DNA of 64,000 bases, from assembly GCA_951406725.2 (NCBI GenBank), contig OX597818.1, positions 132,494,001-132,558,000 of the forward strand, read 5' to 3'. Position 1 is the stretch's first letter; each line of letters starts with the position of its first letter. This DNA comes from Octopus vulgaris (taxonomy: Eukaryota). Under the pieces are notes generated by a model. The model saw only the letters and a list, made by a program, of their open reading frames with translations, had not been told where the DNA came from and made no database searches. Of the stretch, positions 14,690 to 63,905 are shown in pieces. Made by a program: the position numbers and the translations under genes.

Positions 14690-15266
14690 TCTTTTGGAAG
14701 AGAGAGCCAGTCGATTAGGTCAACCCCAGTACGCAACTGGTACTTAATTTATCGACCCCGAAAGGATGAAAGGCAAAGTCGACATCGGCGGAATGTGAAC
14801 TCAGAACGTAATGCCGCTAAGAATTTTGTCCGGCGCTGTAACGATTCTTATTTCTTTACTGCCCACAAGGGGCTAAACATAGAGGGGACAAACAAGGACA
14901 GACAAAGGGATTAAGTCGATTACATCGACCCCAGTGCGTAACTGGTACTTATTTAATCGACCCCGAAAGGAAGAAAGGCAAAGTCGACCTCAGCGGAATT
15001 TGAACTCAGAACGTAACGGCAGACGAAATACCTATTTCTTTATTACCCACAAGGGGCTAAACACAGAGGGGACAAACAAGGACAGACATAGGTATTAAGT
15101 CGATTATATCGACCCCAGTGCGTAACTGGTACTTATTTAATCGACCCCGAAAGGATGAAAGGCAAAGTCGACCTCGGCGGAATTTGAACTCAGAACGTAA
15201 CGGCAGACGAAATACCGCAAAGCATTTCGCCCGGCGTGCTAACGTTTCTGCCAGCTCACTGCCTTA
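14690..15266 (-). mobile_element. Stack of three family-A SINE units
   Basis: Three core repeats (CGACCCCGAAAGGA...GGCAAAGTCGAC); junctions at 14848/14849 and 15032/15033. Confidence 0.9.
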
Positions 15267-59131: not shown

Positions 59132-59298
59132 TATATAAATTTAGTTAGGTATTAAATAACCACCTAAGGGATATTAAATATCCATAGAATTTACTGGTTA
59201 TTTTACCCATATACACAACAATGTTATGAACTATAATCCTTTTCTTATTTTAAAAAATGTGTGCATTGGCTCATGTATGTGAGGGTGAGTATATATAT

Positions 59299-59765
59299 AT
59301 ATATAAGAAAAATAAAAACGGAAAATACGCACACTTACATGGTTATAGTATAATTTTTAATGTATCGACCGGTTTCGCAATCGCTATTCATGATACAATG
59401 TGTTTTTTTTAAACCTGTCTCCTGCCTGTACACATATTTTTCCCCACCCAAAACCTAAACAGTTATCTCCCTTACAGACAAGAATAACAACAATAATAAC
59501 AACCAATTACCTCTCTTTACTTGTCAACTTGTAAAATCATTCACTCGTGAATCTCATTATAAACAACATGGACCCATTTTCTTCTTAAGAAGCAATATAT
59601 TTTCATATAAATTAAACATTGTATCATGAATAGCGATTGCGAAACCGGTCGATACATTAAAAATTATACTATAACCATTTAAGTGTGCGTATTTTCCGTT
59701 TTTATTTTTCTTATATACATTACAATCCACCACGTGGGGACAACCGAAATCCATCTTTTCTGTTA
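59299..59765. mobile_element. Fold-back element between TA tracts; ~100-bp inverted arms each containing an HHR fold
   Basis: 59301-59401 is the inverse of 59616-59716, with a spacer of about 214 bp. Confidence 0.8.
59620..59656 (+). ncRNA. Minimal type-I hammerhead fold, A3-U8 core variant (mirror copy at 59361-59397, minus strand)
   Basis: TGTATC-ATGAATA-GC-GATT-GC-GAAA-CCGG-TC-GATACA: 6-bp stem I, palindromic stem III ACCGGT, GUC triplet. Confidence 0.75.
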
Positions 59766-59772
59766 CTACTAC

Positions 59773-59817
<45 letters not shown>

Positions 59818-61101
59818 CACATATATATATATATATATATGAATGTATGAGTATATGTATATATATATATACGTGTGTGTATGTATATGTGTACGTGTGA
59901 TTGTGGGTGTATTTGTATCGATATATATATGTATGTGAGTGAATGAATAATGTGGTATACATGAAGATATAGCGTGTTTATCTTGTTTACTTTGTTGTTT
60001 TGGCTCGTTGTTCGTATTTTGGACATTTCGTTTGTATTTGTATTACTTTGGTTTTATTGTGTGTATTTAGATCGTTTTTCGTTGTCCGTATTGAGCTGGT
60101 TTCGTTTTTCGTTTTGTTTCAAAGAATGAGAAAATAGTTATCTCACTTTAAACTATAACTTTAATAAAATGTAAGTTTGATTTATATTATAAATTCCTCT
60201 ATTTAGATTTGAATTAATATATAAACTAATGTTTTACCATGAATATATCTACATATGTGTATGGAATTGGATATGTATACATACATGCATATTCACATAT
60301 AAATTAGAAATGTCTGTATATGTGTCTGTATGAATGTGTGTATTATGCAGCAAAATCGGTTATAGAACTAGACACTAATAGGGGAGGTCATCGCTCTCAT
60401 TTCTAGCCTTACATGATACACATAGACCCGGGTTTCTGATTAGTTACCCGTTTTTAATGTGTGATAATCACCAGCTTGTTTCTTTATTATGATAATCAAA
60501 TATCGTTACAGAGAGGGACAACACAGGACGTTACAGACATTTAGATAAGCTTAACGAGTTTATGTTAAAAATTGGATAAATTCTATATACAAATTATAAT
60601 TTAAAAATTTATACAGACTTGTTCACAAAATTTGGTTGGGTAACCAGCGACTACACCATGCTTTTACCATGGGTGGTATTAAGTAGGGACAGTCACTTCT
60701 AACTTCCTCACGACATCCTTCCATCTTTTCTCATCTTCGTGACAGGTGCCTCCTCTCCAGCCTTATCTTGCTCTTCAGGTGGTATCTGAAGTAATATATC
60801 AATCTAGTGCCGGAGATGAAGGATCCTGTCTTGATTCCTTGCATTCTTGAAAGTGATCGCAAAACTGACTTCAGTTTTTTTTCTAAATGTTACCTTTTTA
60901 TCTACAACTGTTCGTTTGATGTTCCTTCCTGCACTCAATAATTTTCAAATATAATTGGACGAAATATTCGCCTTAAAAGACAGAAATCTCGATGAAATCA
61001 TCTACGTGTGTTGACGTATGTCTTCTGCCAACACAAAATGTTACATGATACTCCATTGATTTCGACTTATATGCGATCATGGGATGACCTACTCATTATA
61101 T

Positions 61102-62892: not shown

Positions 62893-63304
62893 AGCGAGTT
62901 GGCAGAAACGTTAGCACGTCGGGCGAAATGCTTAGCGGTATTTCGTCTGCCGTTACGTTCTGAGTTCAAATTCCGCCGAGGTCCACTTTGCCTTTCATCC
63001 TTTCGGGGTCGATTAAATAAGTACCAGTTACACACTGGAGTCGATGTAATCGACTTAATTCGTTTGTCTGTCCTTGTTTGCCCCCTCTGTGTTTAGCCTC
63101 TTGTGGGTAATAAAGAAATAGGTATTTCGTCTGCCGTTACGTTCTGAGTTCAAATTCCGCTGAGGTCGACTTTGCCTTTCATCCTTTCGGGGTCAATAAA
63201 TTAAGCACCAGTTACGCACTGGGGTCGATGTAATCGACTTAATACCTATGTCTGTCCTTGTTTGTCCCCTCTGTGTTTAGCCCCTTGTGGGTAGTAAAGA
63301 AATA
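62893..63304 (+). mobile_element. Dimeric family-A SINE within a single TSD
   Basis: TSD GGTACTCTTATC (62881-62892 / 63305-63316); internal junction AAAGAAATA|GGTATTTCG at 63120/63121. Confidence 0.93.
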
Positions 63305-63905
63305 GGTACTCTTATCGGCCCTAAGATTTCTCCGTCTTTCATTGCTGTTTGTTTTCCTTGGAAAAAAAAAATTCAATATATCTGTTTGCTGACCTATAAT
63401 TCTTTTTAGAGTTTTGCCAGTGTTAAAGACAGTGACGATGAACTGCTGACGATATCAGAAACTAGTCAGATCAATATGATAGATGTTTGCTTGTGCATTT
63501 ATAAATTTTGACTTATGAATGGTAATTTTGATTTATGAATGGTTAAAAAAAAAAAAGCTGGGAAGAAATTCTGGAATGTTCATGTTTCTGGGTGGGACGG
63601 AAGGACGGATGGATGGATGAAAAGATTTTGTGTAATGGTTAATGTGGGAATTATGGTATGATTGAGATGCAGTAGGAGTAACGGTAAGAGAAAAGGGAGC
63701 TATGACGAATGAGCTTGGATAGAGGTCGGTGTGGAAGCAATTAGCTACTCTAAGGAGCAGAGAGCATGATAATAGGGAGACAATCAGCGGAATGAAGGAA
63801 CAAGGTATGCACGTAGTCAATGGATTAGTGAATTAGTCGTTGCTCATCTATCGAGAGATAAAACAACGACAAAGCTATATTGGGTGGCTTCGTTGTTGTT
63901 TAACC

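Follow-up and report, generated by a model that had tools for sequence, protein, structure and literature searches.

A fold-back 3' end of a Penelope-like retroelement with a hammerhead core in which A3-U8 likely replaces C3-G8

The 64-kb window, the whole stretch of DNA analysed here, is microsatellite-rich, animal-type DNA and contains a 467-bp locus in which the pLTR, or non-coding 3' end, of a Penelope-like retroelement (PLE) of Neptune type is joined to an inverted piece typical of such insertions. Sequence comparisons suggest that the locus is a 5'-truncated, fold-back copy from a clade whose hammerhead motif has an A3-U8 pair, likely in place of C3-G8, that is predicted to permit weak cleavage; we give this reading a probability of roughly 0.68. 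The locus itself is an ordinary dead fragment. The interesting part is a series of four states of the 3-8 pair across related families.

The motif TGTATC-ATGAATA-GC-GATT-GC-GAAA-CCGG-TC-GATACA occupies positions 59620-59656 of the forward strand, and the identical 37 nt recur on the reverse strand at 59361-59397, in the inverted arm. Both copies and their numbering are present in the sequence as the initial annotation had claimed. The motif is of the minimal type I, with a 6-bp stem I, an A3-U8 core, a 2-bp stem II, a palindromic stem III and a GUC triplet (A3, 59626; U8, 59631; G10.1, 59633; C11.1, 59640; A15.1, 59644; U16.1, 59649; C17, 59650), and the predicted cut lies after C17, between 59650 and 59651. 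The forward-strand motif has U4, G5, A6, N7, A9, G12, A13, A14, A15.1-U16.1 and H17 all in place over 59627-59650. The consensus letters C3 and G8 are absent and are replaced by A3 and U8 in both the window and the family, so the hammerhead is classed as a variant. Matches to an 18-nt core pattern number two in the window against 0.01 expected, and 0 of 100 shuffles contained two. Rfam scans returned no hammerhead family match at E ≤ 10, and folding of a 48-nt monomer was no better than that of shuffles (z about 0), with a predicted fold lacking stem III. Thus, the case is one of comparison. Just 3' of the hammerhead (window about 59675-59685), the family reads ATG-TAAGT or GTAAGT, a possible splice donor of the kind present in intron-bearing pLTRs; the right arm of the window has a private G>T change at 59679 within this stretch.

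The retroelement part of the locus spans 59403-59775 of the forward strand as a 5'-truncated 3' end (3' UTR and pLTR) that terminates in (TAC)n running into (TA)n. From 59400 on, 371 nt are part of a dispersed repeat with 1,504 first-look candidates, 40 of which were scored and have 90-96% identity. Relative to longer copies, the window copy begins some 47 nt past the stop codon of GIY-YIG, and no coding remnant of the PLE was found in the window. Upstream in the longer copies (L031, which is rearranged, and L032) are a GIY-YIG domain above the cut-off (Pfam E 2e-7), a reverse transcriptase (RT) fragment below it (RVT_1 E 0.004) and, in the linker between the two, a CGRPNCGTC-type (CxxC) motif. 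The RT-linker-GIY-YIG order and the linker motif indicate a Neptune or Nematis PLE, as far as the accessible text of PMC8557442 describes these groups; the assignment as Neptune-type follows the domain order and the linker, a motif that Nematis also has, and is to that extent provisional. The initial annotation had not recognised the element, and both hammerheads and inverted pieces are to be expected at the 3' end of a Neptune PLE. A short conserved island, TTATCTCCC, lies 5' of the hammerhead at 59463-59476 (forward strand); it is found in copies of all four families and is possibly a protein-binding or promoter element. Elsewhere in the window, SINE-like repeats form two 184-bp tandem duplications at 14849-15216 and 62937-63308.

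The inverted repeat consists of two arms, 59297-59411 and 59606-59720, which are 95% complementary and separated by 194 nt. The reverse-strand piece (59301-59401) is an inverted copy of about 59616-59716 that ends at the second, shorter 3' end of the family, where it is joined to (TA)n. An extension of about 55 nt is present in one arm only (59717-59775, forward strand) and probably represents the PLE 'tail' between two fixed 3' ends. The (TA)n flanks at 59289-59305 on the left and 59776-59871 on the right are likely the target microsatellite. Fold-backs were found at 9 of 30 similarity-ranked loci of the family and at 8 of 9 hand-picked loci, several of which were chosen as inverted pairs and four of which, on one contig with equal spacing, may represent one event. 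The arms stop at different points in 14 of the 17 fold-back loci, near window position 59716 in one arm and near 59770 in the other, and usually run into (TA)n. This arrangement matches the inverted 5' piece and one-ended tail described for PLEs in the available parts of the literature, and the two reverse-transcription start sites that delimit the tail of a lizard PLE (PMC11167929), so the paired occurrence of the motif is read as a product of insertion. The caution that the two arms are not independent evidence thus holds, as they are the fold-back of a single insertion; the fold-back adds no evidence, since each hammerhead would be locked in a duplex. For 59297-59765 a long hairpin (about 105 bp) is predicted in which the motif is buried and, because the two motifs also lie on opposite strands, the window copy is probably inert. 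The fold-back was also considered as a functional dimer and rejected on the same two grounds, as no transcript would carry two sense motifs.

Four fold-backs (L036-L039; G000:C10, 2.49-2.87 Mb) are near-identical, share the same 1.28-kb spacing and lie beside a mariner-like transposase fragment; they are probably one insertion copied by segmental duplication. Over 59560-59765, run X11, guessed to be RNA, shows A>G differences at 15 places and T>C differences at 14, in clusters that include A3, A6 and A9. The clusters occur in single low-depth contigs of this run and are absent or at trace level in the other three runs. They may reflect A-to-I hyper-editing of fold-back transcripts.

Genome-wide comparisons bore out A3/U8 as the family consensus. 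A 31-mer spanning the motif has 153 exact copies genome-wide and 0 in the control, and among 29 copies selected by homology and ranked by overall similarity, A3 is found in 29/29 and U8 in 28/29. Counts in the 2.8-Gb assembly used the fixed frame xUGANyA-GC-N4-6-GC-GAAACCGGUC, for which all controls gave 0, and yielded 789 matches with A3/U8, 35 with A3 and another letter at position 8, 24 with U8 and another letter at position 3, and 1,247 with neither. Among the first 100 listed of these 1,247, 94 are U3-A8, 4 are U3·G8, 2 are G3/A8 and 0 are C3-G8. Matches with a change on one side only are spread across subfamilies and letters, which is the pattern expected of post-insertion decay. Since the copies are not independent, these counts show family states rather than selection. 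With at least 789 matches in the genome, the variant is not rare here, as the initial annotation had supposed. A3 and U8 persist in A-U subfamilies with as little as 77% DNA identity in the endonuclease region, while stem I, loop II and position 7 (A or U) vary. The single-change copies L133 (A3/A8) and L147 (C3/U8) were assigned to the A-U family. On these sequence comparisons, A3-U8 is the normal state of the clade and not that of a decayed copy.

Positions 3-5 of the motif read AUG, and the ORF of a lizard PLE begins within its hammerhead (PMC11167929), which raises the question of whether A3 is kept as the first letter of the element's start codon rather than for pairing with U8. However, of 7 copies tested, 5 reach a stop after 10, 12 or 18 codons in the frame opened by this AUG, and the frame differs from one subfamily to another. 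Nor would a start codon account for the coupling of position 8 to position 3, and the related families have GUG or UUG at these positions. The start-codon reading was rejected on the short, non-conserved frames and is scarcely credible.

Covariation was analysed in 20 hand-picked A-U and U-A rows chosen by pattern. In these rows 85.9% of cells pair, compared with 22-40% when the partners are slid, and stem I covaries, with two-sided changes at all 6 pairs. Positions 3 and 8 are pairable in 20/20 rows (13 A-U, 6 U-A, 1 U·G). Measures of pair count and pair type on the 20 rows were not above shuffles (205/500 and 471/500, respectively). Stems II and III are uninformative because they have 2 bp each and are invariant in rows selected on those letters. 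Folding predictions showed stem III to be stable only as a dimer, the strand-swapped dimer formed through the palindrome having -18.1 kcal/mol vs. -4.0 kcal/mol per monomer. A non-hammerhead dimer is predicted to be 2.5 kcal/mol more stable than the strand-swapped hammerhead dimer.

Related families have other letters at positions 3 and 8. In the U3-A8 family the motif lies 3' of the GIY-YIG region, which has 55-67% protein identity to that of the A-U family. A search favouring G or C at both positions returned 73 matches vs. 19 in the control (11 vs. 1 for G3-C8 alone) and supplied the seeds for the G-C and U·G families; all families were reached by patterns that require the catalytic letters. 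The G3-C8 family, gathered by DNA similarity from its seed (258 candidates, 30 loci taken), has this pair in 26/30 loci; its stem I has 7 bp and its triplet is GUA. The family obtained from the C3-G8 seed L106 has U at position 3 in 25/30 loci. In this U3·G8 family, also gathered by DNA similarity (194 candidates, 30 loci taken), U3·G8 occurs in 22/30 loci and C3-G8 in 3/30, and stem I is weak. The U3·G8 state is ambiguous, because C stands just before U3 in 22/30 loci and the core is also readable as C3-G8 plus one additional U. A surplus pyrimidine likewise precedes position 3 in the U3-A8 family and is common to its sister U·G family; much of the U3-A8 family (L040-L069) lacks the first pair nucleotide of stem I, yet was amplified. 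G5, A6, A9, G12, A13, A14 and the NUH triplet (GUC, GUA or GUU) are kept in all four families.

Relationships between the families were estimated from the endonuclease regions, which have 61-71% DNA identity between families. A DNA tree of 37 regions and 651 columns, excluding the ribozyme and leaving out L075, whose endonuclease belongs to a neighbouring U-A copy, resolves four family clades, each with 100/100 support. The tree requires three changes of the 3-8 label, and A-U and G-C form one side of a 100/100 branch. Alternative groupings of A-U with U-A (p 3.7e-5) and of A-U with U·G (p 3.2e-5) were rejected. In the protein tree, A-U groups with G-C at 83/73 only, and the order of events stays undecided because the tree lacks a reliable root. 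The path of C3>A plus G8>U proposed in the initial annotation found no footing, as a related family with a clear C3-G8 consensus was sought and not found, and the sister family of A-U is G3-C8. Positions 3 and 8 change together across the related families, and each change ends in a pairable state. The proposal that selection acts on this pair accordingly stands to the extent of the coupled, pairable changes, although such selection would act on the source elements and not on the window copy.

Several other groups were examined and set aside. Small C3-G8 groups (L101/L119, L129, L115 and L074) are without RT or GIY-YIG similarity, and the DNA search from L114 led to an unrelated repeat. A small, old G3-C8 group (L206, L207, L210-L212 and L215) has only about 50 nt in common and no PLE match; its members are hammerhead-like, their stem II having 3 bp and their palindromic stem III being longer, and in L207 another motif lies back-to-back on the opposite strand. 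An abundant C3/U8 repeat, the one amplified unpaired match seen, accounts for 9/30 loci (L070, L072, L076, L078-L080, L086, L088 and L091), is homogeneous and holds CUGAUUA and GAAACCGGUC. It has neither stem I and stem II pairing nor a PLE protein match and was taken as a non-hammerhead. A tandem repeat of about 359 bp was observed in both orientations at G000:C1, about 20.002-20.005 Mb (L093-L099). Each unit contains a canonical C3-G8 type I hammerhead with a longer stem II, and similar units occur at 44.91 Mb and 92.89 Mb of C1. We take this repeat to resemble a retrozyme-type array.

The support for the 3-8 pair comes from only three lineage-level changes, and by a hand estimate the chance that all three are pairable at random is about 6%. 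This figure leaves room for a relic, in which the ribozyme was lost early in the Neptune lineage and the pairable states are a coincidence carried by amplification. Variation in the window's subfamily is only somewhat lower at core positions than in the rest of the UTR (7/377 vs. 401/10,065), as in neutral decay after insertion, and in a more distant PLE fragment inspection by eye did not find the motif in the 520 nt 3' of the endonuclease. However, the UTRs barely align between families, yet the hammerhead and TTATCTCCC are the recurring short matches, each weak alone. The A-U clade shows covariation in stem I, positions 3 and 8 stay constant where position 7 changes, and no amplified unpaired family appeared in the same fixed frame. 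A relic is thus quite improbable, and it is likely, judged by these comparisons, that the 3-8 pair has been kept by selection. A stronger statement, that the pair walked through A-U, G-C, U-A and U·G in one genome without passing C-G and with cleavage kept throughout, is tentative and falls somewhat short of even odds.

The reading of a hammerhead kept by selection suggests the following scheme. In an active tandem element, two motifs on the same strand would associate by their palindromic stem III, and cleavage after C17 would process the element RNA; self-cleavage is predicted to need such a dimer or the element's own protein. Selection on source elements would have kept positions 3 and 8 paired while their letters drifted, and exchange between A-U and G-C by two transitions through G·U is a plausible route, since these are sister states. 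The window copy would have arisen by reverse transcription with priming on both strands of a (TA)n target, at the two fixed 3' ends, and its read-through RNA would form the hairpin of about 105 bp that buries the motif. Most likely, the motif would work as a minimal PLE hammerhead does, weakly and as a dimer or with help from a protein.

The amplified lineages with imperfect folds (weak stem I in U·G, missing first pair in U-A) speak against the hammerhead reading. They would fit a fold kept for a non-catalytic role, such as protein binding, RNA dimerising or positioning of reverse transcription, with a structural 3-8 pair and negligible cleavage. PLE minimal hammerheads cleave poorly even as dimers (PMC4209133), and in the available text on the lizard PLE, insertion in vitro is unimpaired with hammerhead mutants, and RNA-seq showed no ends at the cut site (PMC11167929). 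However, the lizard motif cuts once its protein is added, and only then (PMC11167929), and the catalytic letters and the NUH triplet are kept in four families, albeit from seeds selected on them. A purely non-catalytic role is therefore unlikely but deserves some weight, and a catalytic, if weak, hammerhead is preferred.

Pair 3-8 is formed only in the active tertiary fold, and its remaining pairable through four states would be evolutionary evidence of selection on that fold. An engineered A3-U8 core, in work of Przybilski and Hammann from 2007, reportedly retains some activity. If the reading is true, the families provide a natural series of compensatory mutations that includes purine-3/pyrimidine-8 cores, and searches based on CUGANGA miss thousands of functional PLE ribozymes. 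Neither Rfam nor CUGANGA descriptors, even when extended to U3-A8, pick up these motifs, so claims of a PLE being without a hammerhead may need rechecking. The A-U, G-C, U-A and U·G cores form a natural set for tests. PLE hammerheads are of debatable importance in vivo, as they cleave weakly and one in vitro system carries out insertion without need of them. Natural U3-A8 cores are already published. Natural A3-U8 or G3-C8 cores were not found in the literature searched, a search that depends on spelling and covered part of the key hammerhead papers. The C3-G8 pair has been confirmed, and an engineered G3-C8 is mentioned, in the accessible part of PMC3884650.

Comparisons with known systems, as described in the accessible sections of the respective papers, place the motif close in form to the minimal hammerheads of metazoan PLE pLTRs (described by Cervera and de la Pena in 2014, PMC4209133). 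These have the consensus CUGANGAH, show low activity as dimers and include a U3-A8 family in Schistosoma. The window motif shares with them the type I topology, the palindromic stem III of 2 bp, for which a dimer is predicted to be necessary, G10.1-C11.1, the location in the pLTR, and opposite-strand copies 100-700 bp apart among mostly truncated copies. It differs from them in its A3-U8 core (and G3-C8, U3-A8 and U3·G8 in the related families), a 2-bp rather than long stem II, no extra nucleotide between A9 and G10.1, and a 6-bp stem I. The element resembles the Neptune PLEs (PMC8557442) in its RT, CX2-5CxxC linker, C-terminal GIY-YIG and 5' truncation, and also in the inverted piece at the 5' end, the tail on one end only and the (TA)n flanks, whereas its tail of about 55 nt is longer than their 30-40 nt. 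In the PAc hammerhead of the Anolis Poseidon PLE, cleavage is lost with C3G or G8C and partly restored in the double mutant (Frangieh et al. 2024, PMC11167929). Dependence on the 3-8 pair and a tail defined by two reverse-transcription start sites, both predicted for the present family, are found in that lizard PLE, but the PAc core is canonical C3-G8, belongs to another PLE clade and had its cleavage assayed in vitro. Natural hammerheads with U3-A8 cores are known, and a 2-bp stem II is common (Perreault et al. 2011, PMC3088659). The present motif resembles these variants in the compensatory 3-8 change and the 2-bp stem II. In contrast to them, it has a purine at position 3 and a pyrimidine at position 8 (A-U here, G-C in the sister family), a state that marks a whole retroelement clade.
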